Source of the DNA: Legionellales bacterium
Lineage (GTDB): Bacteria; Pseudomonadota; Gammaproteobacteria; UBA1113
Direction of reading: 5' to 3'
NCBI GenBank assembly: GCA_002709565.1
Contig: PAPY01000031.1
Coordinates: 71-64,070, forward strand
Length of the DNA: 64,000 bases
The notes under the pieces are model-generated. The model was given only the letters and a program-made list of their open reading frames with translations, made no database searches and was not told the origin of the DNA. Below, in pieces: positions 9,917 through 40,599 of the stretch (its first letter is position 1; every line of letters starts with the position of its first letter). A program made the translations under genes and the position numbers.

Positions 9917-9922
9917 ATATCA

Positions 9923-11272: not shown

Positions 11273-11278
11273 ACGACA

Positions 11279-14269: not shown

Positions 14270-14367
14270 TTATTTGTAGGCCGTGGTTAATGATATACTA
14301 AGGCCATTTTAGGAGTCAGCGCTTTTTTTAGTCAGTCAGTGGTTAAAAAAGCTATAGTTAGGAGCCA

Positions 14368-19268: not shown

Positions 19269-21272
19269 TTAATATTGGTTGTGTGACAATGGATTACCAT
19301 ATTTTTGTAGGTATCGCTCACCGATTATAGTTGATCCGCCATAGTTTAGATGGCTGCTCAACTTCCCTGTGAAGTATAGCGGAACCCCGTCAAAAGCTGA
19401 ATAACATTTTTTTGAATCACAAATAATTTGATTTGGGTCTATCAAAATAACTTGTGGATATTTGACTCCTAAGTCTGAGATAACTTCGCGAGTTTTTGCT
19501 TGGTATGCCATAACTTGTTCATATTGATTAGAGCAGTCTATGACAGAAACTTTGGTCACACCACAATGAATTGTAGTGCTAAAAAGAGGTGGAAAATCAT
19601 AGACTATAACTGGAGTTGCACCATTAGCAATAATATATTGGATGCTATTTTCTAAGCCTGTCTTCAAAACACTAAGATAATTGTGATCTGTTATTGTTTC
19701 GAAAGTGTAGCCTTTAGACTGCCAGGCACCGCCAAGAATGACATACTGGTATTTGTTATTTTTGATTAATTTTTTTATTGTGTCTGAGCGTTTATTTAGG
19801 TCGTGTGCTAGATTAGTTGGCTTAACTAGAGTGACCAATAAGAATGGTGAACTGCTCTGTGTTGCAACATAGCCTTTGAGATGTAGCTGTTTTAAAAACA
19901 CATTCAGCATACCCATTTCAGACATGGCATGTGAATCTCCAGTAAGCAATACGTCTATTTTTTTCCTGTCTCTATCACCAAATGAGCATTCATCTTGTTT
20001 GCCTAATCGTGAAGGGTGTTGCTGGTCAGTATGACACTTACTACTGCTCTTGATAAATCCAAAATATTCGTTATCGATAATTTGTTGGGCGGTAGTGGTT
20101 ACCTGATTAAAACCGAGATGGGGATGTTTTTTTATAGTGTAATAAAAACAAACAGACATAATGATTGGAATTATCCAAAGTAAAATAAAGGATTTGGTTA
20201 GGTTAAACTGAATTTTAAACCGGAATGGTTGTTCGATATACCTCCAGCTCATTATGGCGAGAAAGAGTGAGATTATTACAATGCTGCTTCCTACAGCAAG
20301 TCCAATAGGGACACCCAGATATGATACATATGCGATAATAGGCCAATGCCATAGGTAGAGGGAATATGAGATTAAACCGACAAATACAAGAGGTTTGCAG
20401 CTTAATATTTTATTTCCTATAGCATGGTTTTTACCTGTGGCTATAACTAATGCTGAACCTATAGTTGGCAGCAAAATATAAAGACTAGGATATGCTGCTG
20501 CAGTTAATATGCAAGTTGAATAAATAATTGCAGCGAGGCCGATTAGAGATAGTAAATGATCGATAATACGGTGTCTATGCAAAGATATTTGATATTGCCC
20601 AATGGCTAATGTAGCACCAATCAGCAATTCAAATGCCCGCGTCAAGGGTGAGTAGTAAACGAGTTGGCCATTGCTTTGGTACATGACATACGTCATCAAG
20701 GATGCAAGTGTCAATATAATTATTGCTATTAACAAAAGTTTGCGTGTTAATAGCTTACCCAGGCTTATAAGGAGGAGAGGCCAAACAAGATAGAATTGTT
20801 CCTCGACACCTAGTGACCATGTATGTAGCAGTGGTAGTACGGAGGCATCAGTAGAAAAATAACCGATATTGATGAATTGCCAAAAATAAAAATTAGCCAG
20901 TGAAGATAAAGTGGCAATTAGTGAGCCAGCATAGTTTATTAGATCTTCGGGCAATAATATAAAGTATGCAGCTATGGTTGTCGCCATGGCCATCACTATT
21001 AATGCTGGTGAGATACGCCGGATTCGCTTCAAATAAAAGTTTCTTATCGTAAATTGCTTTTTTATGGAATTCAAGTAAATATGATCGGTGATAAGGAAGC
21101 CAGAGATAACGAAAAAAATATCAACACCCAAAAATCCAGCGGGCGTAAATGTTGTCCCAAGATGATACAACAATACTAATATAACGGCAATCGCCCTCAG
21201 GCCATCAATGTCAGGACGGTATTTTCTTTTACTCAAATTGCTTGTGGTATCAGTATCTGCTTGTCGATTCAT
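19269..21272 (-). CDS. Acyltransferase-3 family membrane O-acyltransferase with C-terminal SGNH domain (OafA-like)
   Basis: N-terminal RPDIDGLRAIAVILVLLYH motif, about 10 TM helices, then a soluble domain with a GDSH-like block (LTGDSHA). 667 aa. Confidence 0.8.
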   Translation of the reverse strand: MNRQADTDTTSNLSKRKYRPDIDGLRAIAVILVLLYHLGTTFTPAGFLGVDIFFVISGFLITDHIYLNSIKKQFTIRNFYLKRIRRISPALIVMAMATTIAAYFILLPEDLINYAGSLIATLSSLANFYFWQFINIGYFSTDASVLPLLHTWSLGVEEQFYLVWPLLLISLGKLLTRKLLLIAIIILTLASLMTYVMYQSNGQLVYYSPLTRAFELLIGATLAIGQYQISLHRHRIIDHLLSLIGLAAIIYSTCILTAAAYPSLYILLPTIGSALVIATGKNHAIGNKILSCKPLVFVGLISYSLYLWHWPIIAYVSYLGVPIGLAVGSSIVIISLFLAIMSWRYIEQPFRFKIQFNLTKSFILLWIIPIIMSVCFYYTIKKHPHLGFNQVTTTAQQIIDNEYFGFIKSSSKCHTDQQHPSRLGKQDECSFGDRDRKKIDVLLTGDSHAMSEMGMLNVFLKQLHLKGYVATQSSSPFLLVTLVKPTNLAHDLNKRSDTIKKLIKNNKYQYVILGGAWQSKGYTFETITDHNYLSVLKTGLENSIQYIIANGATPVIVYDFPPLFSTTIHCGVTKVSVIDCSNQYEQVMAYQAKTREVISDLGVKYPQVILIDPNQIICDSKKCYSAFDGVPLYFTGKLSSHLNYGGSTIIGERYLQKYGNPLSHNQY

Positions 21273-21274
21273 TA

Positions 21275-22705
21275 TTAGCTCGCTAGCTCATTTTTTTGAT
21301 GCCAATAGAGTGTTCTTCCACTCTTAGTGATGATTTCTTTTTTGATGATTTTTGTATGTTGGCTGAGTATTAATTCAAAATTATCTTGATTATAATCAGC
21401 AAAAATATCTTTACGTAGTGCAAGCATTTTGATAACAGTGATGTCTTCTTTAGGAATGAACTCAATAATACCCTGAGGAGCTATATTCAATAACCACTGA
21501 ACTAGCTGAGCTAAAGGGATATTTTTCGCAACGGCTAAATGATGAATGAAAGCTAAAGCAATCATCGCGTCTGCTTTAGCACGCTTATTGAATCCACAGC
21601 GTTCGGATTGTAACCAGCCCTGGGCAGGGCTAGGATTCGCTGCATCGAGGAATAATGGCAAAAATGGCTTAGCCAAGGTTTTCGACCGTTGATAGGCAAG
21701 CTCCAAAGAAGTTTGATCAAAGTCAAAGCCAACCACAGACTCGGCCCCATGCTCGAGGGAAATTATGGAATAGTCACCCGTATTACAGCCTAAGTCGATT
21801 AATAGCTCAGGTTTGATTGTACTTGTAAATTCGGCAATAAATTGTTTTTTCTTGATAGCTTCATCGCTATCGTAGATGTTGGTATGAGCATATCTACCCC
21901 AGTAAGTCTTACTGTTGCCTTTAGGCTCGAGGCGACTCACCCATTTGCGCATTTGTCTCAGTAGACCTTCATAAGCAAGTTTAGAAAAGCCTTTTTGGCT
22001 GCTTGCTTTGGTCATTGCGTTGTCTTCATTCTTGATGGCTACTTTGTCAAAGTAGTTCTGTAGCAAGATATGGGTGAAGATTTTCCAGTTGAATTTTTTG
22101 CGCAATGGTAACATCAGCGCAATATCAGATGTTGGCACGCCTTCAAGGTTGCCACGGAACCAACTGTTATGGGTAATGCCTAAAATAGATCGTAATAATA
22201 AGGGATTGAGAAATTGCGTACAAAACTGACGATAGCCCAGCCAGTATTCGCCTTGTTGGTAGGACGCTAACGATAATAAGTCAATGAATACTGGTTTCGC
22301 ACCAATGAATTGAATGTTATAAGCACTGGCATCTTTTAAGACGACGTCGTTTTGCAATAGATACAATTGGAAATCAATATGATGCAGTGCCGCGTCTTTT
22401 AATTGATAGAAGCACCATTCATAAGGATAAGAAACATAAGGTACTCGCTCATGCTCTAATATGTATGCCGTATTGGCTTCTTGTGAAGGCCACTCCTCGC
22501 GCTCTAATTCTTTGGTTGGAATGAGAAAATTTTTTTCGATTGCCTGCTGGTACACAGATGGTGGGATTGTTTCATATTGCTCGCGGCCAGCTTCTTGGAC
22601 AAAGCGGTATATTCTATCATTTCCTTCATAGATATATCCCATAGGGTCTCTAAATGAGCCGGTATTTTTGTGGATAGCTTGCGATGAGTCTGTTACCTCT
22701 ATCAT
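21275..22705 (-). CDS. Two-domain protein with a C-terminal class I SAM-dependent methyltransferase
   Basis: IDLGCNTGDYS...VVGFDFD motif I / acidic motif II in the C-terminal half. The N-terminal ~250 aa is of unknown function. Confidence 0.6.
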   Translation of the reverse strand: MIEVTDSSQAIHKNTGSFRDPMGYIYEGNDRIYRFVQEAGREQYETIPPSVYQQAIEKNFLIPTKELEREEWPSQEANTAYILEHERVPYVSYPYEWCFYQLKDAALHHIDFQLYLLQNDVVLKDASAYNIQFIGAKPVFIDLLSLASYQQGEYWLGYRQFCTQFLNPLLLRSILGITHNSWFRGNLEGVPTSDIALMLPLRKKFNWKIFTHILLQNYFDKVAIKNEDNAMTKASSQKGFSKLAYEGLLRQMRKWVSRLEPKGNSKTYWGRYAHTNIYDSDEAIKKKQFIAEFTSTIKPELLIDLGCNTGDYSIISLEHGAESVVGFDFDQTSLELAYQRSKTLAKPFLPLFLDAANPSPAQGWLQSERCGFNKRAKADAMIALAFIHHLAVAKNIPLAQLVQWLLNIAPQGIIEFIPKEDITVIKMLALRKDIFADYNQDNFELILSQHTKIIKKEIITKSGRTLYWHQKNELAS

Positions 22706-22708
22706 AAT

Positions 22709-23998
22709 TTACACCTTTGCCACTCCGTAAACCAAGATACCGTAAATGATGTAACTCAAAACCCAAGCAATGGCGAGTGCGCACAAGAATATTATAAAAT
22801 TTCCACTCAAATACCCTATTCCAATGGCGCCAGCAGTCATTACTAAATAGAGAATTTGCCACAATGAGCAAATTTCATTGCGGCCCACGACGCCGAAGAT
22901 ATTGGTGAGAGGAGAGACGCAAAACGCCGCAACAATGGCCGGAGCAATAATTGCTAAGACGAGACTGCTGTGATTCCAATTAGCACCAAACAGCCAGGGT
23001 AAGAAGGGTGCAATGGCATACATACCTATCAGGTATGCTCCACCCATGCTCCCGAGCAGTAAAAAACTTTTTTTGACCAAGGGTTGCAAAGATTGCTGGG
23101 CGCGAAAGCAATCAGCAAAACGTTTTAGCAGTAATTGTGATAAGACTGTTGCAAGTAAGCCCGTCGGTATTTGAAAAACCCGATTCACTAGAAAATAAAT
23201 CCCAGCATAGGTTTGGCCGAACAGTATACCGATAAAGAATACCGGGACCCAAGCGGCCGCCGAGTCCAATACTGACGTCCAACTGGAGTGGAGTGGAAAT
23301 TTATAATATTTCTTTAGCAAACTGGGACCGAGTTTAAGCGCTGCCTTCGAGAATTCGACATTACCCAGTGCTTTGTACATTAAGTATAAGGCGTTACACA
23401 CTAAGCCAATCAAATAGCCTGCAATTAGAGCGATGGCTGCTTGGGGAATAACAAAAATCAATGCTAACTGTGCCGCGATCATCGTGATATTTTGAATGAT
23501 TTTGCCGTGGGCCACCAAACCAACCCTGTCTTGATGAATACAGTGTAAACGCAGAATTTGGCAAATTCCTTGCAGGATAAAGATCCCAAACAAGCAATAC
23601 AGCATGGTGCTGTCAATCGCTAAATAGGCATTTAACAGATCATGAAACAACCATAATAGGCCGGTGATAACAAAACTTGAGGCAATGACAATCAGTCCGC
23701 TAACCAACAATAAGCAAGATGCTTGTTGCTCGTTTTCGGTTAAGGGAATTGCAAACTCTAAGCGTAAACTAGCTGCCGGTAGCAACAGCGCCGCAAATGC
23801 CATGACATAACCCAGTTGCGCAAAGGCGTCTGGTGGGTACAAGCGCGTCAAAATCGGAGTACTCAAGATCAAGAGCAATTGTGCAATGATATAACCTAGG
23901 GTAATGCCGGAGGCCTTTTTGAGTAATTGTGAATGCCTTGCCTGCTTGAGATAGCATGACAACGTTGACGTGAGGGTTTTTGTTTGGCTTGCATCCAC
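22709..23998 (-). CDS. PST-family polysaccharide biosynthesis membrane protein (second Wzx-like flippase)
   Basis: 429 aa, multi-TM, with PST-like N-terminal segments. Confidence 0.55.
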   Translation of the reverse strand: MDASQTKTLTSTLSCYLKQARHSQLLKKASGITLGYIIAQLLLILSTPILTRLYPPDAFAQLGYVMAFAALLLPAASLRLEFAIPLTENEQQASCLLLVSGLIVIASSFVITGLLWLFHDLLNAYLAIDSTMLYCLFGIFILQGICQILRLHCIHQDRVGLVAHGKIIQNITMIAAQLALIFVIPQAAIALIAGYLIGLVCNALYLMYKALGNVEFSKAALKLGPSLLKKYYKFPLHSSWTSVLDSAAAWVPVFFIGILFGQTYAGIYFLVNRVFQIPTGLLATVLSQLLLKRFADCFRAQQSLQPLVKKSFLLLGSMGGAYLIGMYAIAPFLPWLFGANWNHSSLVLAIIAPAIVAAFCVSPLTNIFGVVGRNEICSLWQILYLVMTAGAIGIGYLSGNFIIFLCALAIAWVLSYIIYGILVYGVAKV

Positions 23999-24003
23999 GT
24001 GTT

Positions 24004-24252
24004 TTATTGGGCCTCTGGTTTTGCGAGGTTGCGTTTAAAGATGTTATCGGAATTGAGCCAATTGCTGATTTTAAACCATGCCCGCTCATGCAAGTAATAG
24101 AGAAATATCTTAACAATAACTTCAAGTGAGCCAATCGTAATAGCAAAACTGACTTTGCGCACGACGATATAGCTAATAACAATCGTTGTTAGTGTGGCGA
24201 AAGTTCGCCAACTGATGGCTTTAATAACACTGATTTTTCGAGATTGGCTCAT
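24004..24252 (-). CDS. DUF2061-type small membrane protein
   Basis: 82 aa with two TM segments. Proteins of this kind are commonly found next to APS kinase/sulfurylase genes, as here. Confidence 0.5.
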   Translation of the reverse strand: MSQSRKISVIKAISWRTFATLTTIVISYIVVRKVSFAITIGSLEVIVKIFLYYLHERAWFKISNWLNSDNIFKRNLAKPEAQ

Positions 24253-24267
24253 TATTTGTTGTCTCCT

Positions 24268-25980
24268 TTATAATTCATTCAGCGGTGAACTAAGACTACC
24301 GAGTATGGCCGCTGATTTAATATGATTTGTGATAGGGGTTTCAGTTTCAATCGCGTCAATATATCCCATATGTACTAGGGTGTTAATCACCGTGTCGACA
24401 GCTTCTAGCGGTGTTACGGTGCTGGTGTCTATTTGTAACTCTGGTTTGATAGGTGCTTCGTAAGGATCATCGATACCAGTGAAGTCTTTAATCAGGCCGG
24501 CTCGTGCCTTACGGTAGAGACCTTTCGGATCTCGCTCCTCACAGGCGGCGAGCGGTGTTGATAGATAAACTTCAATAAAACCACCGTATTGTTCGATGTG
24601 CTCTCTGACATAACGTCGGGTATCGGCATACGGTGCGATAGGGGCACAGATAGCGATGCCATGATTCTTTGTGATCTCAGATGCCACAAAACCGATGCGT
24701 TTTACATTAGCATCCCTATCTTCTCTCGAGAAGCCAAGACCCTTGGATAAATTTAATCGGACTAAATCACCATCCAGTAATGTCACCGGACGGCCCGTGT
24801 TTTCCATTAATTTTGATTTTAGTAATTTAGCAATGGTGGATTTGCCTGCGCCGGATAGCCCGGTGAGGAATAGACAAAATCCTTGGCGGCGTTTGGGCGG
24901 GAAGCGTTCCCGTAAGATATCGATGACTTCAGGGAATGAAAACCATTCAGGAATATCTTGACCTGTCTCCAGACGCTGCTTAAGTTCTCTTTCGCTAATT
25001 TGTGTATTAGTGCTTTCAGTCTTGCTGCGCTTGACGAGGATAACGTTAATGCCTAACTCATCGTTATACTGTTGCAGTAATGATGCAATTTGTGTTTTTT
25101 CTTCACCAGCAAGCGTTTGCTCATCAATAATAAAATCACTACAGCCGTAATTTTTGCGAATGATGGCATGCCAGAGTGCTTCTCGGGCACCGGCCATGCG
25201 CACCGCCAATGGCAATAGACTTAATAGCGCACTATGTTGTGGATAATGTTTGAGTGCTTGCTTGTAGCATTTTACCCGGGTGTAATGATCGATATCAGTA
25301 GTAGCGCTGATGCCAACACCGGGTTGAATCAATAATAGTGCATCGAGTTCATTAGCTATTTTGGTCGTTAAGTCATAATCGGTTTGATGAATGGGTCTGC
25401 ACGTATGAAATCCTACGACCCTTTGTGCGCCAATCATTGTAAAATAAGTTTGTAATTCATGGGGTGTGTTGCGTAACTCAATGAAATCAGGTGTCTTCGG
25501 CAATTGTACACTGAGTAGTTTGCCGCCGACATAAGTATCGCCGGTATAGTGATTGAGACGAAAAACGCCGGGGTGGCTTTCATCGGTAGTGCCATAAAGA
25601 TGCTGTGCTTCACGGACCTTATCGGGTTGCCAACAATCACTGACCTGCATGATGGCGAGTAGGAGGCCTTCTTGATTGCGTAGTGCTATGTAACTGTCAA
25701 TGGTTATGTCCTTGGCAAATACTGCCGTCACATCCAGTGTCACTGGCATTGGCCAGAATAGACCATTGGTTAAACGCATATCGGTTAGGACGGACCCATA
25801 ATCAGCTTTGGTCAGGAAACCGTCGAGGGGGGAGAAGCCGCCACTCATTAGCAGCTTGATGTCGCAGAGTTGCCAGTCGGTTAAATACCAGGATGGCATT
25901 TCTTGTAATGCAGGTTTCCAGTCTTCTACTTCTGCGATAGAAAGGAAACTGTCCTTTAACTGACCACCATGTGCCTGCAT
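24268..25980 (-). CDS. Bifunctional sulfate adenylyltransferase (Sat-type ATP sulfurylase) / adenylylsulfate kinase (CysC)
   Basis: The C-terminal APS-kinase Walker A sits in CLFLTGLSGAGKSTIAKLL. The N-terminal ~380 aa has an ATP-sulfurylase-like layout. The likely start is MQAHGGQ (25980); the ORF track extends to 26073. Confidence 0.75.
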   Translation of the reverse strand: MQAHGGQLKDSFLSIAEVEDWKPALQEMPSWYLTDWQLCDIKLLMSGGFSPLDGFLTKADYGSVLTDMRLTNGLFWPMPVTLDVTAVFAKDITIDSYIALRNQEGLLLAIMQVSDCWQPDKVREAQHLYGTTDESHPGVFRLNHYTGDTYVGGKLLSVQLPKTPDFIELRNTPHELQTYFTMIGAQRVVGFHTCRPIHQTDYDLTTKIANELDALLLIQPGVGISATTDIDHYTRVKCYKQALKHYPQHSALLSLLPLAVRMAGAREALWHAIIRKNYGCSDFIIDEQTLAGEEKTQIASLLQQYNDELGINVILVKRSKTESTNTQISERELKQRLETGQDIPEWFSFPEVIDILRERFPPKRRQGFCLFLTGLSGAGKSTIAKLLKSKLMENTGRPVTLLDGDLVRLNLSKGLGFSREDRDANVKRIGFVASEITKNHGIAICAPIAPYADTRRYVREHIEQYGGFIEVYLSTPLAACEERDPKGLYRKARAGLIKDFTGIDDPYEAPIKPELQIDTSTVTPLEAVDTVINTLVHMGYIDAIETETPITNHIKSAAILGSLSSPLNEL

Positions 25981-26173
25981 GTTGCTGACTCCCGCATTAA
26001 ATCTAAAGAGGGAGCATTCTACCCATGGCCGGCACTGTATTGCAAGATTTGTAAGCAAAGAAAGACAAAGCATTGGTCAGTATGTAACCGCAAGGATGCT
26101 TTGCATTACCTAGCAGAGTTGTTCATAATATCCCCCCTCTTTTGAGTTATATTAATGCCTTTTTATTGGAGAT

Positions 26174-27079
26174 GTGCCCGTGACGAGAAGCCACTTACAA
26201 AAACTCGAGGACGAGAGTATCCATATCATGCGCGAAGTTGTGGCCCAAGCCGAACGTCCGGCGATGTTGTACTCTATCGGCAAAGATAGTTCTGTCATGC
26301 TGCACTTAGCCATGAAGGCATTTTATCCTGCTAAGCCCCCTTTCCCCTTGGTTCATGTTGATACAACCTGGAAGTTCCGCGAAATGATCCAGTTTCGTGA
26401 TAATACGGCGAAGGATTTAGGCCTTGAGTTGTTGGTGCATACCAACCCTGAGGGGGTGGCTGAAGGTATTGGACCATTTAGTCATGGCTCGGAACATCAT
26501 ACTCGGGTGATGAAAACCGAAGCGCTTAAGCAAGCGCTAGACAAATACCAATTTGATGCGGTGTTTGGTGGAGCCCGTCGGGATGAAGAAAAATCCCGCG
26601 CTAAAGAGCGCGTATTTTCGTTCCGCGACAAACATCATCGTTGGGACCCCAAGAATCAACGTCCCGAATTATGGGGCCTTTACAATGCCTACAAACACAA
26701 GGGGGAAAGCATTCGCGTTTTTCCGTTATCGAATTGGACAGAGTTAGATATTTGGCAGTATATCTATCAAGAAAATATTCCTATTGTACCCTTGTATCTT
26801 GCCGAAGAACGCCCGGTGGTAGAGCGTGACGGTACACTCATCATGGTGGATGATGAACGTATGCCATTACAAGCCGACGAACAAGCACAAATGCGCAGGG
26901 TACGTTTTCGTACCTTAGGGTGTTATCCCTTAACCGGTGCTATCGAGTCACAAGCTAGTACTATCCCGATGATTATCGAAGAAATGTTATTAAGCACATC
27001 CTCTGAGCGACAAGGACGTGTTATTGATAATGATGCCAATGCATCAATGGAGCAGAAAAAACAAGAGGGGTATTTCTAG
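26174..27079 (+). CDS. cysD: Sulfate adenylyltransferase subunit 2
   Basis: Near-identity of the motif series to CysD (LEAESIHIxREV, [35 protein letters not shown]). Confidence 0.9.
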
Positions 27080-28983
27080 TGTTTACAACCGATGCATTAC
27101 CAGCGCAAACTGACATTGATGATTACCTCAAATCACAGAACAATAAATCCTTATTGCGATTTCTGACCTGTGGTTCTGTGGATGATGGTAAGTCTACCTT
27201 AATTGGGCGTCTGCTCTATGAATCAAAAATGATTTATGACGATCAATTAAGTGCTTTGCATAAAGATAGCAAAAAGTTCGGCACCACTGGTGAGGGTTTG
27301 GATTTTGCGTTATTGGTGGATGGTTTAAGTGCTGAACGCGAGCAAGGGATCACTATCGATGTTGCGTATCGTTATTTTTCGACGGACAAACGCAAATTTA
27401 TTGTTATCGACACCCCTGGACATGAACAATATACCCGCAATATGGCAACCGGTGCATCCCATGCTGATTTGGCGGTGGTGATGATTGATGCACGCAAAGG
27501 CGTGTTACCACAAACTAAACGCCATAGTTATATCGCGCACTTGTTGGGCATAAAACATATTGTGTTGGCCGTCAACAAAATGGATTTGGTGGAGTATAGC
27601 GAGGCGCGTTTTAGTGAAATTTGGCAAGATTATTTGGCCTTTGCTGAGTCATTGAATGTAGAAAATATTCATGCCATTCCGTTATCGGCATTGCAAGGCG
27701 ATAATTTAGTGACTGCATCTAGCAATATGCCTTGGTACGAAGGGCCAAGTTTGATGAGCTACTTAGAGACGGTACAAATCAATGCGGCAACACAATCATT
27801 GCCATTTACGATGCCGATACAATGGGTTAATCGCCCCAATTTGGACTTTCGCGGTTTTACCGGAAGAGTGGCTTCTGGCAATCTGCACCCAGGGGATGCA
27901 ATTAGTATTTTACCCAGCAATAGACATGCAACCGTTGAACGTATTGTTACTTACGATGGTGATTTAACCGAGGCACAAGCGGGGCAATCCATTACTTGCG
28001 TACTCACAGAAGAGATTGATGTTTCGCGGGGCGATGTGTTTGTGACACAAGACTCACACTGCCATGTGAGTGATGAATTCACGGCTGAAATCTTATGGAT
28101 GTCAGAAAAGCCATTTATTCCCGGTCGACAATACTTACTGCGCCAAGGGACAACCCATGCATTGTGTACACCGAGCAAACCAACCTACCGAGTTAACATT
28201 CATAGCTTGGTTCATGAAGCTGCCGAGGACTTATCACTGAATGAAATAGGTTGTTGTGAAATATTGCTCAACAGAGCGATTGCTTTTGCGCCCTATCGAA
28301 CAAATCCTGGACTCGGGAGCTTTATTTTAATTGACAGGGCTACTAACGCGACAGTGGCGGCAGGTTTTATCCAGTCCAGTGAGAGCCACTTGGCGAATGT
28401 TAAATCGCAACCCTTGTTAGTAGATAAACAAGCCCGCTCAGGAATCAAGCCTCACAAGCCGGCGATCTTATGGTTAACTGGTTTGTTCTGTGCCGGTAAA
28501 TCGACTATCGCCAATTTGGTAGAATTAAAAATGAATCAGCAAGGCATACACACGATGTTGCTTGATGGTGACAATATTCGCCGTGGCCTGAATCGGGATT
28601 TAGGTTTTAGTGAAGCCAATCGAGTTGAAAACATTCGCCGAATTGCTGAAGTTGCTGATTTGATGTCGGAGGCGGGTTTAATATGTCTGGTGTCGTTTAT
28701 TTCGCCTTTTGCGGCGGAACGGCAAATGGCAAGAACCCTTATCGGCGATGAGCAATTTGTTGAGATCTATGTCAAAACGCCACTCGAGGTTGCGGAACAG
28801 CGCGATACAGAAGGCTTGTACAAAAAAGCCCGGGCCGGGGTAATTGAAGACTTCACCGGGATCAATAGCCCCTATGAGGAACCTGAGTCACCCGAGCTTA
28901 TTATTGATACGACTGAACTCAGTCCCGAGGAGAGCGCTCAAGTTATCATTAACTATCTGAAACAGAAAGGAATTACCTACTAA
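27079..28983 (+). CDS. cysN: Bifunctional sulfate adenylyltransferase subunit 1 (CysN GTPase) / adenylylsulfate kinase (CysC)
   Basis: GTPase G1 motif GSVDDGKSTLIGRLL at the N-terminus. APS-kinase P-loop LWLTGLFCAGKST in the C-terminal ~200 aa. Its start overlaps the cysD stop. Confidence 0.9.
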   Translation: MFTTDALPAQTDIDDYLKSQNNKSLLRFLTCGSVDDGKSTLIGRLLYESKMIYDDQLSALHKDSKKFGTTGEGLDFALLVDGLSAEREQGITIDVAYRYFSTDKRKFIVIDTPGHEQYTRNMATGASHADLAVVMIDARKGVLPQTKRHSYIAHLLGIKHIVLAVNKMDLVEYSEARFSEIWQDYLAFAESLNVENIHAIPLSALQGDNLVTASSNMPWYEGPSLMSYLETVQINAATQSLPFTMPIQWVNRPNLDFRGFTGRVASGNLHPGDAISILPSNRHATVERIVTYDGDLTEAQAGQSITCVLTEEIDVSRGDVFVTQDSHCHVSDEFTAEILWMSEKPFIPGRQYLLRQGTTHALCTPSKPTYRVNIHSLVHEAAEDLSLNEIGCCEILLNRAIAFAPYRTNPGLGSFILIDRATNATVAAGFIQSSESHLANVKSQPLLVDKQARSGIKPHKPAILWLTGLFCAGKSTIANLVELKMNQQGIHTMLLDGDNIRRGLNRDLGFSEANRVENIRRIAEVADLMSEAGLICLVSFISPFAAERQMARTLIGDEQFVEIYVKTPLEVAEQRDTEGLYKKARAGVIEDFTGINSPYEEPESPELIIDTTELSPEESAQVIINYLKQKGITY

Positions 28984-29097
28984 TTCCTGGGTGCGGGCGG
29001 CTGAGGTACAATAAGGACAAAAATTTATCAGTTTTTATCCATTTCTAGCAAACTATGGTAGAATCAGCCTCCTTATGAAAGACAGAGTGATGATTCG

Positions 29098-30540
29098 ATG
29101 ACAACCCTAGTCCCTGATTTTTCCCGTGCGCGGGTCCTGGTTTACGGTGATGTGATGCTGGATAGGTACTGGTATGGCAATACCGGGCGGATTTCCCCCG
29201 AGGCGCCGGTACCGGTGGTCCATATCCGCGATATCGAAGAACGCCCTGGTGGTGCGGGTAATGTGGCGTTGAATATCACGGCCCTTGGGGCCCAGGCGAG
29301 TCTCTTCTCCGTCTGTGGTGATGATGCCGCAGGCCGCTCTCTCGACGCAAAACTAACAGACGGCAGAATTGCCAAGCACATTCTCAAATCCAGCCAAATT
29401 CCTACAGTTGCGAAGCTGCGGGTCGTCAGCACCCAGCAACAGCTGATTCGGCTCGATTTTGAAGAACCCCATGACGTTATCGATACCTCAGCTTTAATGG
29501 CCGAGTGCATCCAAGAGATGACTACCGCAGGTGCACTGATATTATCAGACTATGGCAAAGGTACGTTGACCGATATCCAAGGGCTTATCCAAGCAGCCCG
29601 GGAGCGTAAGGTACCGGTGTTGATAGATCCCAAGACCAACGATTTTAGCGTTTATCGTGGTGCCAGTGTCATTACCCCCAATCTCAAAGAATTCGAAGCC
29701 GTTGTCGGCCGCTGCCCCGATGAAGAGACGATTATCACCAAAGGCCTGGCCCTGATGGCAGAACATGACATCAGTGCGTTATTGGTGACCCGCGGTGAGA
29801 AGGGCATGACCTTACTACAGAAAGACCACCCCCCTTTCCACCAACCCACTAAAGCCCAGGAAGTGTATGATGTCACCGGTGCCGGTGATACCGTGATTGG
29901 GGTGTTGGCGGCAGGTCTTGCTGCCGGTGAGACTCTGCAACACAGTGTGACCTTGGCCAATGCTGCCGCCGGGATTGTGGTGGGCAAATTGGGTACGGCT
30001 ACAGCTGAACTCTATGAACTCAAAGAAGCCCTCCTAGGCGAGCAAATCGATGATAAGGGTGTGCTTGGCGAAGATAAACTAGCCGCCATCGTGCGCCAAG
30101 CCCAAGAGCAGGGCAAACGGATTGTCATGACCAATGGCTGTTTTGATATCCTGCATCCCGGTCATGTGGCCTATCTCGAAGAAGCCAAAGCGCTCGGTGA
30201 TTTACTTATCGTTGCCATGAATGATGATGCCTCGGTCAAACGACTTAAAGGTCCACAGCGTCCCATCAATCCTTTGGAGAATCGCATGGCGGTCTTGGCC
30301 GGATTGGGTGCGGTAGATTGGGTAGTGCCGTTTACCGAAGACACGCCGGAGCGGATCATCGGCCACATTTTGCCGGATATCTTGGTCAAAGGCGGTGATT
30401 GGCAAGTTGATCAAATCGCTGGGTCCGAGCATGTACTCGCTAATGGCGGTGAGGTATTATCCTTGCAGTATATCGATGGTCTCTCAACCACCGATATCGT
30501 TGAACAAATTTTATCAAAAGAGGCCGATCCTGTTTGCTAA
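29098..30540 (+). CDS. hldE: Bifunctional D-beta-D-heptose 7-phosphate kinase / D-beta-D-heptose 1-phosphate adenylyltransferase
   Basis: High similarity along the full length to enterobacterial HldE/RfaE (VMLDRYWYG, EERPGGA, MTNGCFDILHPGH). Confidence 0.92.
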   Translation: MTTLVPDFSRARVLVYGDVMLDRYWYGNTGRISPEAPVPVVHIRDIEERPGGAGNVALNITALGAQASLFSVCGDDAAGRSLDAKLTDGRIAKHILKSSQIPTVAKLRVVSTQQQLIRLDFEEPHDVIDTSALMAECIQEMTTAGALILSDYGKGTLTDIQGLIQAARERKVPVLIDPKTNDFSVYRGASVITPNLKEFEAVVGRCPDEETIITKGLALMAEHDISALLVTRGEKGMTLLQKDHPPFHQPTKAQEVYDVTGAGDTVIGVLAAGLAAGETLQHSVTLANAAAGIVVGKLGTATAELYELKEALLGEQIDDKGVLGEDKLAAIVRQAQEQGKRIVMTNGCFDILHPGHVAYLEEAKALGDLLIVAMNDDASVKRLKGPQRPINPLENRMAVLAGLGAVDWVVPFTEDTPERIIGHILPDILVKGGDWQVDQIAGSEHVLANGGEVLSLQYIDGLSTTDIVEQILSKEADPVC

Positions 30541-30556
30541 CCATAGGAGTTAATTC

Positions 30557-31513
30557 ATGAAAATCGTCACTGGTGGCGCCGGTTTTATCGGCAGCAATAT
30601 CGTCAAAGCCCTCAATCGCCAAGGCCATACCGATATCTTGGTGGTGGACGACTTGTCTGAAGGTATCCAATACAAGAATATCGTTGATTGCGACATCATG
30701 GACTATATGGACAAAGACGACTTTTTAGCGATTATCGAAGCAGATGGCGACTTTTCGGCGCCAATTGAGGTGATTTTCCACGAGGGGGCCTGTTCTGATA
30801 CCACGGAGTGGGATGGTCGCTACATGATGCAGAATAACTACGAATACTCCAAAGTGTTGCTGCATTTCTGCCTTGAGCGCCAAATACCCTATATCTATGC
30901 CTCCAGTGCCGCGACTTACGGGGCCAATACCACCTTTGTTGAAGACCCCGCCAATGAAGCGCCTTTAAATGTCTATGGCTACTCAAAATTCCAGTTTGAT
31001 CAATACGTTAGACGCATTCTCCCTACCGCCAAGAGCCAAGTGGCGGGCATGCGTTACTTCAATGTCTACGGACCGCGAGAATTCCACAAGGGCAAAATGG
31101 CCAGTGTGGCATTTCACTTCAATAACCAAATCCATACTGATGGTGTCGTCAAACTATTCGAAGGCTGTGATGGCTACGGCAATGGCGAGCAAGTGCGGGA
31201 TTTCGTCTTTGTTGACGATGTGGTGGATGTGAATCTGTGGTTTTATGACAATCCCAAGGTCAGCGGCATTTTCAACGTCGGTACTGGCCGCTCTCAGAGC
31301 TTCAACGATGTGGCCAATGCGGTGATTGATTGGCACCGTAAGGGCAAAATCGACTATATTCCCTTCCCCGAACAGCTCAAAGGCCATTATCAGAGCTTTA
31401 CCCAGGCCGATATCAGTGCTTTACGTGATGCTGGCTATGACAAGGAATTTTGTACAGTAGAACAAGGGGTTAGACAATACCTCGATTGGCTACACACCGG
31501 TGACAATGGCTAA
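30557..31513 (+). CDS. hldD: ADP-L-glycero-D-manno-heptose 6-epimerase
   Basis: Near-identical motif set to E. coli HldD/RfaD ([31 protein letters not shown]). Confidence 0.92.
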
Positions 31514-31548
31514 AACCCTTGATTTTAAGGGGATTTATGTCGGTGTCG

Positions 31549-31571
31549 TTAAGATAGCGTTAATAGATATA
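31549..31571 (+). promoter_or_regulatory. PmrA-box-like direct repeat (TTAAGATA-gcg-TTAATAGA) upstream of the candidate effector ORF
   Basis: Two 8-mers, each matching 6 of 8 positions of the Legionella/Coxiella PmrA half-site TTAATATT, spaced by 3 nt about 100 bp upstream of the ATG at 31667. Confidence 0.3.
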
Positions 31572-31666
31572 CCCTACTATCGCCCTATTATTGGTTTAAT
31601 AACTGGGCTAGACTTTAATATAGAGGTTGAATACCCCGTTATGTTGATGAAATTGAGAGGTGACTG

Positions 31667-32875
31667 ATGGCCGGAGACATTGTTGATGCAGCGGAAGACC
31701 TGTGGCGGGCTAAGCAAGAAAAAGATCGATGTAATGCCGCATGGAAGCAGGCAAAGGCCAAAGGACGTATCCCAGATGCTGTTGATCAGGCGAACAATAA
31801 AGCCAATAAGGATTATGACGAACTCAGAAATCAGCTATATAAGGATTACGGGTATGACGACGGCGTGAAAATTGACGGCATTGTACAAGAATTCGATGGA
31901 GGTGCCCGTAAACCCCGACGACCTGCACCCAAACCAGTAGAAGACTCAAAAAAACAAGCCAGAGAAGGCGCTGAAAATGCTCAAAAAAGAGCAAAAGAAC
32001 TCAAAGAGCGTGAAGAGGCCGCTAAAAAGGCTTCCGGATCAGATGACCTTGTCGAAGAAGCTGCCGGCAAAGGCAAAAACAAAAAAGCAGACAGTAAAAA
32101 TCCCGTTGGACAAGATGCTGAGGGGAATCCAGTGCAGGGCAGTACTGACTCGCCCCTAGGATTTTCATCCCAATATGCCATGCCACTCAAAGGCAACATG
32201 ATTTATGCTATACAACCAGGCCAACAGTGGTGGGAATTAGGGTTCTTTATGGATGAGGGCTGGTTCCAACGCTATTGGGACAAGGGCTATGAAGAAGGCA
32301 AGCGTGAAATCATCAGGAAAGAGGCCATTGATAATCTCAAACAACAAGCAGCGGCCATTAACAGCGCCAATGGCGCCAAAAAAGGCGACAAAAACTATAT
32401 TGACTTAGATGATGATAAAAAATGCGCGAAGCTTGTGAAAAAAGCCGCCGATGAAGGTAAAGGTATCTTTATTTCACCAAAAAGCGGTGAGCCAGAGGTA
32501 TTAACCGATGTGGAGCGCCGTGCGCGTATGGAAGAATTCTCAATGGAAACCCGCCCCGGAGGCCCCGGAGTTATAGTAATTGAAACCCGTGAAGATTTTG
32601 CTCGTGATTTGCGAGCTCAAGCGGAGATGTTTAATGCTCACTATGGATTTGATAGTTCACATCCTGATGCTTGTGTATTAACCAATGAACAATGTGACAA
32701 GCTTTATGAGGGGGTTAAAGCAGGTGGAAAAATTGTATTTGGTGTTGGTGGCGACGTAGCTGCTGTGAACGAAGATAATGAACATGAATATCTGAGCATG
32801 TTTAGACGAGGTGACTTTAAACCTATAGACAGCTGCGACGTGTCGCCTCCTATTGCACCAACTCTCACACTTTAG
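31667..32875 (+). CDS. Hypothetical soluble, charged/coiled-coil protein; candidate Dot/Icm effector
   Basis: 402 aa. No signal peptide or TM. The N-terminal half is K/E-rich. There is a glutamate-rich block about 20-30 aa from the C-terminus (NEDNEHEY). A PmrA-box-like direct repeat lies upstream. Confidence 0.5.
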   Translation: MAGDIVDAAEDLWRAKQEKDRCNAAWKQAKAKGRIPDAVDQANNKANKDYDELRNQLYKDYGYDDGVKIDGIVQEFDGGARKPRRPAPKPVEDSKKQAREGAENAQKRAKELKEREEAAKKASGSDDLVEEAAGKGKNKKADSKNPVGQDAEGNPVQGSTDSPLGFSSQYAMPLKGNMIYAIQPGQQWWELGFFMDEGWFQRYWDKGYEEGKREIIRKEAIDNLKQQAAAINSANGAKKGDKNYIDLDDDKKCAKLVKKAADEGKGIFISPKSGEPEVLTDVERRARMEEFSMETRPGGPGVIVIETREDFARDLRAQAEMFNAHYGFDSSHPDACVLTNEQCDKLYEGVKAGGKIVFGVGGDVAAVNEDNEHEYLSMFRRGDFKPIDSCDVSPPIAPTLTL

Positions 32876-32915
32876 ATCGGGTGTTTTCACAGGCAAAAAG
32901 TGTTTTAATAACTGA

Positions 32916-34022
32916 ATGGACGCAGCCTATTCACTGACAGACAATACCCTTCACTGCCATGGTGCTTGGACCCGTGACGCGGGCAATAGCCTGGCAAAAC
33001 AACTCGAGCGCCTCAAATCCAACGCCCCAGAACATTTATTGATCGATGGCAGTGATGTGACCATTATGGATACGGTAGGGGCATGGTTGCTGCAAAAAAC
33101 CATTGCCATGCTCGAAGCCCAAGGTAGCACTGTAGAGATGTCCGGGTTTAGCTTCGAAGCAGAGCACTTGTTGACTATTGTTACTGAACAGCCTGGTGCT
33201 GAGACACCGATTCCGCCAACCCCCCATTTGTCAGGTTTTGCCTTTGTGGGCAAATTAACTATTGGTGCGCTGCATCAGGCCCAAAATATGCTGCGTTTCT
33301 TTGGCGAAGTGTTTATTTATTTTCTTGTCTGGTTAAAAGATCCCCGCCGCATTCGTTGGCGTGCCTTGTTTGCCTTGATTCAAACTACCGGTTATCAAGC
33401 AATTCCCATTGTTGCACTGTTGTCATTTTTGATTGGTATTGTATTGGCATACCAAATGGGTACAGAACTCAAGAATTATGGCGCCGATATCTTTTTGGTG
33501 GATTTGCTGGGCTTGGCGATGCTGCGGGAATTTGGGCCATTATTGACGGCGGTCATTGTTGCTGGTCGCACGGGATCAGCTTATACCGCCCAATTGGGGA
33601 CCATGAAATTAAACCAAGAAGTGGATGCCCTGCAAACCATGGGACTATCATCACGGGAAATTTTAGTACTGCCCAAAGTATTTGCCCTGCTGATTGCCTT
33701 GCCGCTGCTCACAGTGATTGCCAATATTGCTGGTATCGCTGGGGGTATGTTGATGTCAAAGATTTTGTTTGGCATTGGCTTTGAAGATTTTTTGAGCCAC
33801 TTCCAAAAATCCATCAAGTTATCGACCTATTTAGTGGGGATGGTGAAGACCCCGGTGTTCGCCATGATAATTGCCAGCATTGGTTGTTTTCAGGGCTTTC
33901 AGGTCAAGAATGACGCTGAAAGTGTGGGGCGCCACACCACCACCAGTGTGGTGCAGTCGATTTTTCTTATCATTGTTGCCGATGCCGCATTCTCGATTTT
34001 GTTCAGTGTCATGGGGGTGTAG
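32916..34022 (+). CDS. MlaE/YrbE-type ABC transporter permease with an N-terminal STAS (MlaB-like) domain fusion
   Basis: The N-terminal ~95 aa has a STAS-like layout. The C-terminal ~260 aa is a multi-TM MlaE-like permease. Confidence 0.7.
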   Translation: MDAAYSLTDNTLHCHGAWTRDAGNSLAKQLERLKSNAPEHLLIDGSDVTIMDTVGAWLLQKTIAMLEAQGSTVEMSGFSFEAEHLLTIVTEQPGAETPIPPTPHLSGFAFVGKLTIGALHQAQNMLRFFGEVFIYFLVWLKDPRRIRWRALFALIQTTGYQAIPIVALLSFLIGIVLAYQMGTELKNYGADIFLVDLLGLAMLREFGPLLTAVIVAGRTGSAYTAQLGTMKLNQEVDALQTMGLSSREILVLPKVFALLIALPLLTVIANIAGIAGGMLMSKILFGIGFEDFLSHFQKSIKLSTYLVGMVKTPVFAMIIASIGCFQGFQVKNDAESVGRHTTTSVVQSIFLIIVADAAFSILFSVMGV

Positions 34023-34802
34023 ATGAGTGACGCGCCTAATGTCATTGAGATTGAGCATTTAACCACTGGCTTTGCTGACACGATTGTTCATGAAGACTGC
34101 AACCTCACGGTGCGCAAAGGGGAGATCCTCGCCATCGTTGGTGGCAGTGGTGCGGGCAAAACCACCCTATTGCGGGCAATTCTTGCCCTGCATAAACAAG
34201 CGCAGGGATCTATTAAAGTGCTGGACCAGGAGGTCATCGGCGCCAGTCCCTATACCATGAGTCGATTAAGCCACCAATGGGGGGTGATGTTCCAACAAGG
34301 GGCGTTATTCACTTCCCTCACGGTATTGGAGAATGTCTGTTTCCCGCTGCGGGAATTCACCCACTTGTCAAAGAGTCTCCAGGAAGAAATCGCCCGAGTG
34401 AAGATTGCCCTCGCCCGCTTTCCGGTTGAGTCACTGCAAAAATTCCCTGCGGAGTTAAGTGGTGGTATGCTTAAACGTGCGGCATTAGCCCGGGCCATGG
34501 TGATGGACCCGCAAATATTGTTTCTCGATGAGCCCACCGCGGGGCTTGATCCAGAAAGTGCCAGTGCCTTGGATGAATTAATTCTCGATCTACAATCGGC
34601 GTTAGGGTTAACCATCGTCATTGTGACCCACGACTTGGATACGTTGTGGCGGGTGACCGATAGGGTTGCCTTTTTGGGAGATAGGCAAGTATTAGCAGTG
34701 GAGCCAATGGAGACCTTAGTCAAATCCGAACAGCCGACCATCAAGGCTTATTTCAGTAATCCACGTGCTCACTTGGCTGATCCGGTGCACAAGGAGGATT
34801 AG
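34023..34802 (+). CDS. ABC transporter ATP-binding protein (MlaF-like)
   Basis: Walker A GGSGAGKTT, signature LSGGMLKRAALARA, Walker B LFLDEPTAGLD. Confidence 0.85.
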   Translation: MSDAPNVIEIEHLTTGFADTIVHEDCNLTVRKGEILAIVGGSGAGKTTLLRAILALHKQAQGSIKVLDQEVIGASPYTMSRLSHQWGVMFQQGALFTSLTVLENVCFPLREFTHLSKSLQEEIARVKIALARFPVESLQKFPAELSGGMLKRAALARAMVMDPQILFLDEPTAGLDPESASALDELILDLQSALGLTIVIVTHDLDTLWRVTDRVAFLGDRQVLAVEPMETLVKSEQPTIKAYFSNPRAHLADPVHKED

Positions 34803-35728
34803 TGGAGTCACGGGTCAATTACACTATTGTTGGATTTTTTGTCATTTTGGCATTGGCGGCAGCGTTTGTCATCGCTGTGTGGTTGTCGGTGGGGCTTGGG
34901 CAAAAGGATTATGATTATTTTCTCGTGTATTCCAACGAATCCGTATCTGGGTTATCGGTGAAATCACCCGTGAAGTATAATGGCGTCAATGTTGGTTTTG
35001 TTGAGTCTATTGGTTTGCGCAAAAAGCACCCCGAAGAAGTCAAGCTTGTGCTTGCCGTCGAAAAAGATGTCCCGGTGTCGTTGGATACGCGAGCTATTCT
35101 CAATACTCAAGGCTTAACGGGAATAGGTTATATGGAGCTAAAAGGCGGCAAACCTGACTCACCTAAGATCCCGTTACTCAAAGGCGAAAAGTACCCTATC
35201 ATCAAGACGTCCCCGTCGCTCATGTTTCGTCTAGATCAGGCACTGGACAAATTAACCAGCAATGTCAGTGACATCAGCCAAGGCTTAGAGCGCATACTCT
35301 CGCAAGAGAATGCCGAACATTTAACCGAGTCCTTAGAGAATATCCAAAGCATTACCGATAACCTGCAGAAGAATAACGAGCGCTTTGACCAAATCCTTGC
35401 AGATACCCAGACCACCATGGATAACACGGCCACGGCCAGCAAAAAACTACCCGCCTTAATGACCAGTATTGATAAGACTGCTCAGTCATTCCAAGATTTA
35501 TCCCATAAATTATCAACTGCTAGTACTAAGCTCGATAGCACGATGACCAATGTGGATGTGGCGGTGAAAACCGTCAATGATCAGTTATTACCGCCGGCGG
35601 TGAATGCGGTCAGTGATTTTGGTGCGGTGATGTTAAACCTCAAGGGCGTGAGTCAACAGTTAGATGAGAATCCATCAGTCTTAATTCGTGGTCGAGAACC
35701 GCTGCCACCAGGACCGGGAGAACGATAA
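34802..35728 (+). CDS. MCE-domain protein (MlaD/PqiB-like substrate-binding component)
   Basis: N-terminal signal anchor, MCE domain, and a C-terminal helical extension. Confidence 0.75.
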   Translation: MESRVNYTIVGFFVILALAAAFVIAVWLSVGLGQKDYDYFLVYSNESVSGLSVKSPVKYNGVNVGFVESIGLRKKHPEEVKLVLAVEKDVPVSLDTRAILNTQGLTGIGYMELKGGKPDSPKIPLLKGEKYPIIKTSPSLMFRLDQALDKLTSNVSDISQGLERILSQENAEHLTESLENIQSITDNLQKNNERFDQILADTQTTMDNTATASKKLPALMTSIDKTAQSFQDLSHKLSTASTKLDSTMTNVDVAVKTVNDQLLPPAVNAVSDFGAVMLNLKGVSQQLDENPSVLIRGREPLPPGPGER

Positions 35729-35729
35729 G

Positions 35730-36350
35730 ATGAAACACCTACTACGTATTACCGGTTCGTCAATTCCCGCTGTTGCCAGTTTAACGCTTGCAAGTGTTGT
35801 CCTCACAGCGTGCATGGGCCCGGTCAAAACCCCACCGGTGAGTACTTACAGTCTCAATGCAACCCCTACTGTGGCGCAAAAACCCCGCACGGCAAAGACA
35901 TTATTAGTCACCAGCCCCACAGCAACTGCGACGTTTGCAACGAACAAGATGGCCTATACCAGTGCGCCGTTTCAAGTGAGCTATTTTGCCAATAATCGCT
36001 GGACCGCACGTCCGAGCGAAATGCTAAAACCGCTGATGGTATCCGCATTACAAGACACCAACCATTATCACGCCGTTGTTGCCTCACCGTTCAGTGGCAA
36101 TGCCACGCTGCGTTTGGATACGGATTTGATTAAGCTACAACAAGAGTTCAGTCATATTCCGTCGCAAATTGAACTGGAGGTTCAAGCCCGTTTAGTGGAT
36201 GCCAAGAGTTTGAGAGTTATCGCGACCAAACACTTTGATATCATCGAACCTGCCCCCACCAACACCCCTTACGGTGGCGTCATCGCGGCTAACAAAGCGG
36301 TGAATCAGTATTTGCAAGAGCTTAGCCGGTTTTGTTTGAAGTATTCTTAA
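35730..36350 (+). CDS. ABC-transport auxiliary lipoprotein (YmbA/PqiC-like)
   Basis: Lipobox LTAC after a signal peptide starting at MKHLLRITG. Its position after the MCE gene. Confidence 0.55.
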   Translation: MKHLLRITGSSIPAVASLTLASVVLTACMGPVKTPPVSTYSLNATPTVAQKPRTAKTLLVTSPTATATFATNKMAYTSAPFQVSYFANNRWTARPSEMLKPLMVSALQDTNHYHAVVASPFSGNATLRLDTDLIKLQQEFSHIPSQIELEVQARLVDAKSLRVIATKHFDIIEPAPTNTPYGGVIAANKAVNQYLQELSRFCLKYS

Positions 36351-40303: not shown

Positions 40304-40599
40304 AATTGCCCTCGCAATGATAAGACATTGTTCAAACTATATCCGGCTTAATCCGCAGAATCAATAGGAGACGCGAAGAAACTATCAACATTTTAAGTGA
40401 GTTAAGTCGGCGTTAATGTTGGTTGGCAAAACAGGCGTTATTCTCGGTCTTGCTCAGGCGAAGATTGGTTCAGTGAGAGCTAATGACAATAACAGCACTC
40501 TTCGCGTGGGTACTCATTGGTTGATTCTTAACTAATGAACAGGTTATTATGGTCCAGATGTAACCCTTCTCAAGGAAGACAACTTCGAGGTAAATCAAT

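Follow-up and report, generated by a model that had tools for sequence, protein, structure and literature searches.

The window discussed here is a 64,000-nucleotide stretch of contig PAPY01000031.1 (assembly GCA_002709565.1) from a marine Legionellales bacterium, and its main subject is a group of sulfate-activation genes that lies at the edge of a surface-glycan cluster. On the minus strand, the group comprises the gene of a 570-aa adenosine 5'-phosphosulfate (APS) kinase that carries a PUA-like domain at its N-terminus and, in addition, a degenerate domain resembling ATP sulfurylase (24268-25980; MBB72264.1) and, 15 nt downstream, the gene of a small membrane protein of the DUF2061 family (24004-24252; MBB72263.1; PF09834, 65.6 bits). 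On the plus strand are cysD, for the small subunit of an ATP sulfurylase (26180-27079), and cysNC, whose product joins the GTPase subunit to an APS kinase (27079-28983; MBB72266.1) and whose GTG start codon shares one base with the cysD stop (TAGTG). The two pairs diverge from a 199-bp intergenic region (25981-26179) that presumably holds both promoters. A sequence-only reading of this DNA had reported these four genes, naming the first a Sat-CysC fusion, and they are indeed intact, with strong family matches; the cysH gene that it placed about 22 kb upstream is also present (1649-2386, plus strand; MBB72246.1), followed by comA, the gene of a phosphosulfolactate synthase (2373-3158, plus strand). 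The reading put forward below, which we regard as reasonably probable, is that the locus provides a single enzyme for sulfate activation along with two APS kinases, and that the adjacent glycan cluster is the most likely user of the activated sulfur.

The start of the fusion gene was set by comparison with database records, where the mechanical open reading frame (ORF) of 601 aa is absent and the 570-aa form, which starts at Met32, is present exactly. Fourteen contigs from the TARA, JGI and Logan assemblies carry these genes and encode the identical 570-aa protein, and the cysNC DNA shows no base differences across three independent assemblies; thus, the genes are real and not an assembly artefact. 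Population variants of CysNC and CysH amount to one start-codon difference and one CysH substitution, and no more. Contigs of relatives are designated L001, L002, L009, L011-L016 and L018-L020 below, and the nearest relative of the 570-aa protein, P0002, is encoded on L009; gene calls in L016 supported comA.

The 570-aa protein consists of PUA_2, ATP-sulfurylase and APS_kinase domains, in this order (Pfam). It passes the model of the bifunctional enzyme, NF004040 (PRK05537), with 729.4 bits for a cut-off of 669, but it stays under the cut-off of the sulfurylase-specific model TIGR00339 (282.7 against 322.95 bits). HMMER alignments to two active enzymes, 1I2D from Penicillium chrysogenum and 2GKS from Aquifex aeolicus, and alignments to homologues show what has changed. 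At the QTRNP-HxxH motif (25378-25410, minus strand) the protein reads FHTCRPIHQTD in place of FQTRNPMHRAH, and at the FII/DE site (25120-25134, minus strand) a deletion of nine residues removes GRDHAGPG, the loop that binds sulfate or phosphosulfate. A second deletion of 15 residues follows downstream in the homologue alignment, for a total of 24 missing residues. The comparison relied on the 120 best database homologues, which come from Woeseia and other Gammaproteobacteria and share 50-54% identity with the window protein; the pattern F/Y-QTRNP-x-HR-x-H is kept by 110 of them, and both canonical sulfurylase motifs by 106. When positions conserved in at least 97% of these 106 canonical homologues are taken as near-invariant, the window protein differs at 35 of 92 in the catalytic sulfurylase domain and at 4 of 49 in the PUA-like domain.

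The residues concerned are those on which catalysis depends in the human enzyme PAPSS1, where mutation of either single His of HxxH abolishes the sulfurylase activity and where two Arg residues, those of RNP and GRD, hold sulfate (PMC11697783). The fold of the domain appears to be kept, judging from an AlphaFold (AF2) model with a mean predicted local distance difference test score (pLDDT) of 86.6, whose best structural matches are 1I2D, 2GKS and 3CR8. The sulfurylase-like domain is, then, most likely non-catalytic, as predicted from its motifs, and since HxxH, the RNP Arg and the whole GRDHAG loop are lost, CysD/CysN is left as the sole credible sulfurylase of the window. The idea of two independent systems for the synthesis of 3'-phosphoadenosine 5'-phosphosulfate (PAPS), which the sequence-only reading had advanced, fails on the missing catalytic motifs of the fusion, and with it goes the supposed redundancy of a heterodimeric and a monomeric sulfurylase: the apparent second type is most likely an annotation illusion created by a pseudoenzyme domain.

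The C-terminal kinase domain of the same protein (24346-24885, minus strand) presents the opposite picture, as alignments show GLSGAGKST, LLDGD, FSREDRDANVKR and RDPKGLYRKARAG, so that all APS kinase motifs (Walker A, DGD, FSxEDR and KGLYxKAR) are intact. Eight of the 89 near-invariant positions of this domain are changed. Seven of the eight are at positions that are also altered in the nearest relative, six of them to the same residue, which argues for lineage-specific substitutions rather than decay. The protein is best read, from its motifs, as an APS kinase with a non-catalytic sulfurylase-like domain, and the name given to MBB72264.1 by the NCBI pipeline is 'adenylyl-sulfate kinase'.

The 570-aa protein descends from the true bifunctional Sat/APS kinase family, and the course of the decay can be followed in part through its relatives. 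P0002, encoded on a JGI contig and 63% identical, reads YQTRKPMHRAH and GHNHAGPD, has no deletions and is changed at 13 of the 92 near-invariant positions of the catalytic domain, that is, an intermediate state. Apart from this protein, which came from a protein search, scans of the genome collection and of metagenomes returned no relative above 49-50% identity. Because the nearest relative is intermediate, the loss of the sulfurylase appears independent and recent. Furthermore, the window protein is about 42% identical to proteins on Burkholderiales/Hydrogenophilales contigs, the orders of Thiobacillus, as compared with 50-54% to the canonical enzymes, so the decay is separate from that seen in Thiobacillus denitrificans; this identity comparison comes out against common descent with the T. 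denitrificans protein.

The genomic setting of these relatives hints at why the domain could decay. On L009 the module is the same as in the window, with cysNC-cysD divergent from kinase-DUF2061, whereas canonical homologues on L001, L002 and L018-L020 have no CysD nearby. Decay of Sat next to CysD/CysNC would fit a relaxation of selection once a GTP-driven sulfurylase was present. This correlation is only suggestive, since the degenerate homologues on L011 and L012 have no CysDN within 8 kb. The homologue on L012, which reads FHTHSPIHRAH and GKHHGSPG, is found in a stretch (3755-11977) between Wza, Wzc/Wzz, CysQ and nucleotide-sugar epimerases, presumably a sulfated exopolysaccharide locus.

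CysD and CysNC have the features expected of a working sulfurylase. CysD scores 544 bits against NF009214 (cut-off 413), carries the PP-loop SIGKDS and is 82% identical to the L009 copy, and CysNC scores 971 bits against NF004035 (cut-off 715), with the GTPase motifs G1 (GSVDDGKS), G3 (DTPGH) and G4 (NKMD) all present in the CysN part. From family membership and these intact motifs, CysD/CysN is the only predicted sulfurylase and would make APS from sulfate.

The kinase domain of CysNC is largely conserved, but its Walker A motif (28480-28503, plus strand) reads GLFCAGKS where GLS[GA][SA]GKS is expected. Among the 145 P-loops that could be read from the 150 closest cluster representatives, the Phe site is occupied by Ser (138) or Pro (7) and the Cys site by Gly (133), Ala (9) or Ser (3), so that neither the Phe nor the Cys occurs in any of them. 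In addition, the lid motif RDxKGLY reads RDTEGLY (K578E). The L009 CysNC is canonical at both sites. These observations raise the alternative of a reciprocal decay, in which the CysNC kinase is impaired as well, the 570-aa protein is the only efficient APS kinase, and the pathway is split over two formerly bifunctional proteins; that L009, where the Sat domain is less decayed, retains a canonical CysNC kinase speaks in the same direction. However, the pattern GxxxxGKS/T is formally kept, Ala or Ser is tolerated at the Cys site, only 2 of 48 positions conserved in at least 95% of sequences differ in this domain, and it still matches the P. chrysogenum APS kinase with 178 bits, while a dead domain should show more decay. 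On this balance reciprocal decay is unlikely, and the preferred reading, one sulfurylase feeding two APS kinases, is retained here.

On the reductive side, the enzyme of the locus is CysH. Its cysteine ligands follow the pattern CC...X~80...CxxC (QCC at 2009-2017 and GCWPC at 2258-2272), with the catalytic motif ECGLH, and CC...CxxC marks the iron-sulfur enzymes that reduce APS, among which the CysH of Bacillus subtilis reduces both APS and PAPS (PMC1175818). The best PDB matches are the APS reductases of Mycobacterium tuberculosis and Pseudomonas aeruginosa, and the score against TIGR02055 is 210.3 bits, below the cut-off of 235.3. The P-loop TSYGLEG (1781-1801) contains GLEG and not the acidic GAED of APS reductases; the Gly site holds Asp in three APS reductases (P. 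aeruginosa, M. tuberculosis and Sulfuricurvum) and Gly or Ala in four PAPS reductases, a small sample. On its cysteine motif CysH can probably reduce APS directly, and the combination with this P-loop makes a dual-specificity or PAPS-using iron-sulfur reductase possible. Given the iron-sulfur APS-reductase motif, PAPS need not be an intermediate on the way to sulfite, contrary to the order of steps proposed earlier.

The comA gene overlaps the cysH stop by 14 nt, which offers an obvious sink for the sulfite, and this direct coupling of cysH to a sulfonate-forming enzyme is a point in favour of the earlier interpretation. ComA matches PF02679 with 266 bits and TIGR03849 with 233.9 bits, below the cut-off of 280. 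Downstream of comA are genes for a glyoxalase-fold protein, a histidine phosphatase, a PIG-L deacetylase, ATP-grasp ligases, amidotransferases, glycosyltransferases and flippases. Family searches of the window gave no match to a ComB-type phosphosulfolactate phosphatase, and the His_Phos_1 protein encoded two genes after comA (3558-4112) may replace it. The gene set at 1649-5820 looks like one for the synthesis of sulfolactate, or a derivative, and its attachment to a de-N-acetylated amino sugar.

The position at the edge of a glycan cluster, as claimed before, is correct: the sulfate-activation genes border a cluster of about 31 kb. The kinase gene heads a compact minus-strand string, kinase-DUF2061-Wzx-NoeA-like-AT3/SGNH, with gaps of 15, 5, 3 and 2 nt. 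Beyond DUF2061 this string (19269-23998) encodes, by Pfam, a Wzx-like flippase (22709-23998), a NoeA-like kinase/methyltransferase of 476 aa (21275-22705) and an AT3-SGNH O-acyltransferase (19269-21272). The pairing of a NoeA-like protein with an AT3-SGNH O-acyltransferase has been reported for Legionella anisa, and in Sinorhizobium meliloti NoeA is found with NodL in the nodL-noeA-noeB operon (PMC9758233). The AF2 model of the 476-aa protein (pLDDT 88) has a fold that matches methyltransferases and the chain terminator WbdD. Its N-terminal domain was considered as a possible sulfotransferase and rejected, as the homologues of the protein are of the NoeA/Lani_1194 type, kinase-like plus methyltransferase, and the model agrees with them. 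Farther into the cluster, between a flippase gene and a GT2 gene, lies the gene of a 996-aa protein (11279-14269) that crosses the membrane several times and ends in a large C-terminal domain; no Pfam, NCBIfam or PDB match was obtained for it, and it may be the enzyme that polymerises or ligates the glycan. The guanine-cytosine (GC) content is 0.38-0.43 at 2000-23000 as compared with 0.45-0.51 at 24000-36000. This difference would fit a glycan locus that varies, and has possibly been exchanged, next to a conserved module that anchors it.

On L009, the module adjoins a different glycan cluster, with genes for a UDP-GlcNAc 2-epimerase, a GT1 glycosyltransferase, a formyltransferase, a DegT aminotransferase and a methyltransferase, and its other flank, on the cysNC side, consists of housekeeping electron-transfer flavoprotein (ETF) genes. 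A different association is found on L001, a contig of an uncultured Coxiellaceae metagenome-assembled genome (CAZGPP010000001.1), where the string at 9941-14493 encodes a canonical Sat-CysC, two sulfotransferase-like proteins with the motif VLGMARTGSS and a CysQ PAP phosphatase. Here a separate lineage of the Legionellales has a module dedicated to sulfation. The string is flanked by outer-membrane beta-barrel genes and by a gene for a protein of the sulfatase/phosphodiesterase fold. CysQ adjoins the homologue on L002, L019 and L020 as well, and because relatives pair the enzyme with sulfotransferases or CysQ, the family appears to be typically part of sulfation modules.

DUF2061 likely has a role in sulfate or sulfonucleotide metabolism, as members of the family occur with genes of sulfate activation in several unrelated contexts. 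Its position after the kinase is kept on L009 (11787-12035), it is also found on L013 (6001-6231) and L014 (6001-6231), and it occurs in a Mesorhizobium nod locus together with nodH, nodP and nodQ (bioRxiv 10.1101/2022.04.26.489235). On L015, DUF2061 is absent from the sulfate-activation context.

Taken together, these elements suggest the following scheme. CysD and the GTPase part of CysNC would convert sulfate to APS, and two kinase domains, the C-terminus of CysNC and that of the 570-aa protein, would phosphorylate APS to PAPS. The sulfurylase-like domain of the 570-aa protein would act as a non-catalytic scaffold, as is described for the hexameric APS kinase of T. denitrificans; the protein would stem from an ancestral bifunctional family whose Sat domain decayed beside CysD/CysNC in the lineage of the window and of its nearest relative. 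CysH would produce sulfite, which ComA would condense with phosphoenolpyruvate to give phosphosulfolactate, and PAPS would go either to CysH or to a sulfotransferase encoded outside the window. In this scheme the neighbouring surface-glycan cluster is the most likely destination of the activated sulfur, a link that is plausible.

Several points weigh against this scheme. The inactivity of the sulfurylase-like domain is a prediction from sequence. No sulfotransferase or CysQ was detected in the 64-kb window, either by permissive-E Pfam searches of all ORFs without matches and of the remaining ORFs, or by comparison of the 476-aa, 253-aa and 996-aa proteins with PDB sequences. A tblastn search of the window with the L001 sulfotransferases and CysQ found neither (best E 0.8), and the L001 sulfotransferase-like proteins themselves score 26.9 and 21.5 bits for a Pfam cut-off of 27. 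The GC content of the sulfate-activation module (0.45-0.46) is like that of the flanking core genes and unlike that of the glycan cluster (0.38-0.43), so the adjacency could be positional. DUF2061 is also part of an ordinary cys operon on Sulfuricurvum-type contigs (cysK-DUF2061-cysH-cysD-cysN-sulfite reductase), for which reason it is no argument for sulfation. Finally, a normal cysteine pathway may exist elsewhere in the genome. As for the surroundings, the precomputed Pfam labels of the genes called in the 6 kb upstream of the window include no sulfotransferase or CysQ, and no sulfotransferase was found in the L009 glycan cluster.

Some of these points are shared by the explanation that the locus performs ordinary assimilatory reduction for cysteine, with the sulfite reductase and the cysteine synthase encoded elsewhere and an incidental adjacency to the glycan cluster. 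Mycobacterium, Pseudomonas and rhizobia use CysD/CysNC with an iron-sulfur CysH as their standard set for assimilation, and the core-like GC of the module, the ETF genes next to cysNC on L009 and the place of DUF2061 in the classical cys operon of the Sulfuricurvum-type contigs all agree with it. This explanation has to account, however, for a cysH that overlaps comA and not a sulfite reductase gene, and for an extra kinase whose gene is the first of an operon that also encodes a flippase and enzymes of glycan modification. Moreover, the statement that no sulfite reductase or cysteine synthase lies nearby holds: cysI, cysJ, cysK and cysE are absent among the window's ORFs of 120 aa or more, and the precomputed Pfam labels suggest the same for the genes called in the 6 kb upstream. 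Legionella, in addition, reportedly cannot draw on inorganic sources of sulfur (bioRxiv 10.1101/2024.10.21.619444). A role in cysteine synthesis is accordingly held to be improbable. A bolder combination can also be imagined, in which the decay is reciprocal and PAPS is reduced to sulfite by an unusual iron-sulfur CysH, whose P-loop is like that of PAPS reductases, solely for a sulfolactate-decorated glycan, in a cysteine-auxotrophic, host-associated marine bacterium; we consider it distinctly unlikely.

The notion that Sat-CysC and CysD/CysNC are two independent and fully functional PAPS systems could invoke the NCBIfam equivalog cut-off that the fusion passes (729 vs 669 bits), the active enzymes among its best PDB sequence matches and the confident prediction of a sulfurylase fold. 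It is nonetheless very improbable, as HxxH has become H-Q-T-D, the RNP Arg is replaced, the GRDHAGPG loop is gone, the catalytic domain departs from its homologues at 35 of 92 near-invariant positions and the TIGR00339 score is 282.7, below 322.95, when single His mutations suffice to kill the human enzyme. That the fusion gene is a functionless, decaying relic could be argued from the heavy change and the 24 deleted residues of the catalytic domain, but it is hardly credible, since the gene has an intact frame of 570 codons, a confident fold prediction, few changes in its kinase (8/89) and PUA-like (4/49) domains, the first place in a compact operon and an architecture kept on L009.

The preferred arrangement, with one sulfurylase and two APS kinases beside a glycan cluster, would be a variant of ones known in other bacteria, and its pseudoenzyme domain arose independently. 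The closest precedents for the pseudoenzyme domain are the APS kinases of T. denitrificans (Tbd_0210; 3CR8) and Entamoeba histolytica, in which, according to two reports (PMC13213808, PMC6715247), the same kind of sulfurylase-like domain is inactive, possibly stabilises a hexamer, and precedes an intact C-terminal kinase. 3CR8 is a strong match of the window protein in both sequence and structure. Unlike Tbd_0210, the window protein belongs to another lineage, has a CysD/CysN sulfurylase next door and is encoded at the head of a glycan operon. The bifunctional Sat/APS kinases (PRK05537; 2GKS of A. aeolicus) share its domain order, its length and an equivalent kinase half, and differ in possessing the catalytic sulfurylase motifs that the window protein lacks.

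Other systems resemble the pathway as a whole. M. tuberculosis has the same set of CysD/CysNC and iron-sulfur CysH, and APS is a branch point there, being either reduced or converted to the PAPS that goes into sulfated molecules of the surface; unlike it, the window has an extra stand-alone kinase, directs sulfite apparently to ComA, has Gly in place of Asp in the CysH P-loop and has no sulfotransferase that could be found. The rhizobial NodPQ, a second CysD/CysNC that provides PAPS for sulfated Nod factors and surface polysaccharides, is the classical parallel of a dedicated activation system, and Mesorhizobium loti needs nodPQ for its sulfated polysaccharides (PMC6192434). The likeness extends to DUF2061 in the Mesorhizobium nod locus and to the NoeA homologue and O-acyltransferase beside the window module, whereas a NodH-type sulfotransferase is lacking in the window and the rhizobial redundancy is between two systems of the CysDN type. 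In B. subtilis, yitBA-yisZ and yitCD form a private route of sulfate activation, APS kinase and reductase tied to a phosphosulfolactate synthase, which makes spore sulfolactate separately from cysteine (PMC517825). The overlap of comA with cysH, and activation genes 22 kb away in the same cluster, recall this system; unlike it, the window has a protein of the histidine-phosphatase family and not ComB, and the lineage is Gram-negative and intracellular, with the genes lying inside a glycan cluster.

These results have a bearing on annotation, because the fusion passes a curated cut-off for a 'bifunctional' enzyme though half of it is predicted dead, and any pathway reconstruction in which it figured as a sulfurylase would be in error. 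Altered sulfurylase motifs are also seen in about a tenth of the best homologues. The canonical enzymes, the intermediate relative and the window protein form a dated-looking series in which a catalytic domain turns non-catalytic, and the two loci concerned have a CysD/CysN sulfurylase next door. In contrast to Legionella, some uncultured marine Legionellales seem to devote resources to the activation of inorganic sulfate, and a sulfonate or sulfate that is probably placed on the envelope could affect the interaction with a host.

As to regulation, a promoter and terminator scan gave no signal above the shuffled expectation, which also applies to the weak sigma-70-like matches at 26045-26016 (minus strand) and 26100-26129 (plus strand) in the divergent intergenic region, and an Rfam scan of the 64-kb window returned no riboswitch and no other RNA.

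Elsewhere in the window, a 402-aa Lys/Glu-rich protein (31667-32875) is encoded between hldD and an MlaE/F/D-like transporter; it has no family match and could be a secreted or effector protein. NCBI records the proteins MBB72246.1 to MBB72266.1 under a 'Legionellales bacterium' metagenome-assembled genome (locus-tag prefix CMF50). This assignment of the DNA to the Legionellales agrees with the Dot/Icm type IVB secretion genes at 39.8-55.4 kb, among which IcmW, IcmV, DotA, DotB, DotD and DotM were identified. The stretch (39854-55464) contains icmW, icmV, dotA, dotB, a dotC-like gene, dotD, an icmQ-like gene, dotM and a dotL-like gene, and is broken at 43323-46389 by genes for a polyhydroxyalkanoate (PHA) synthase and a BCCT-like transporter.

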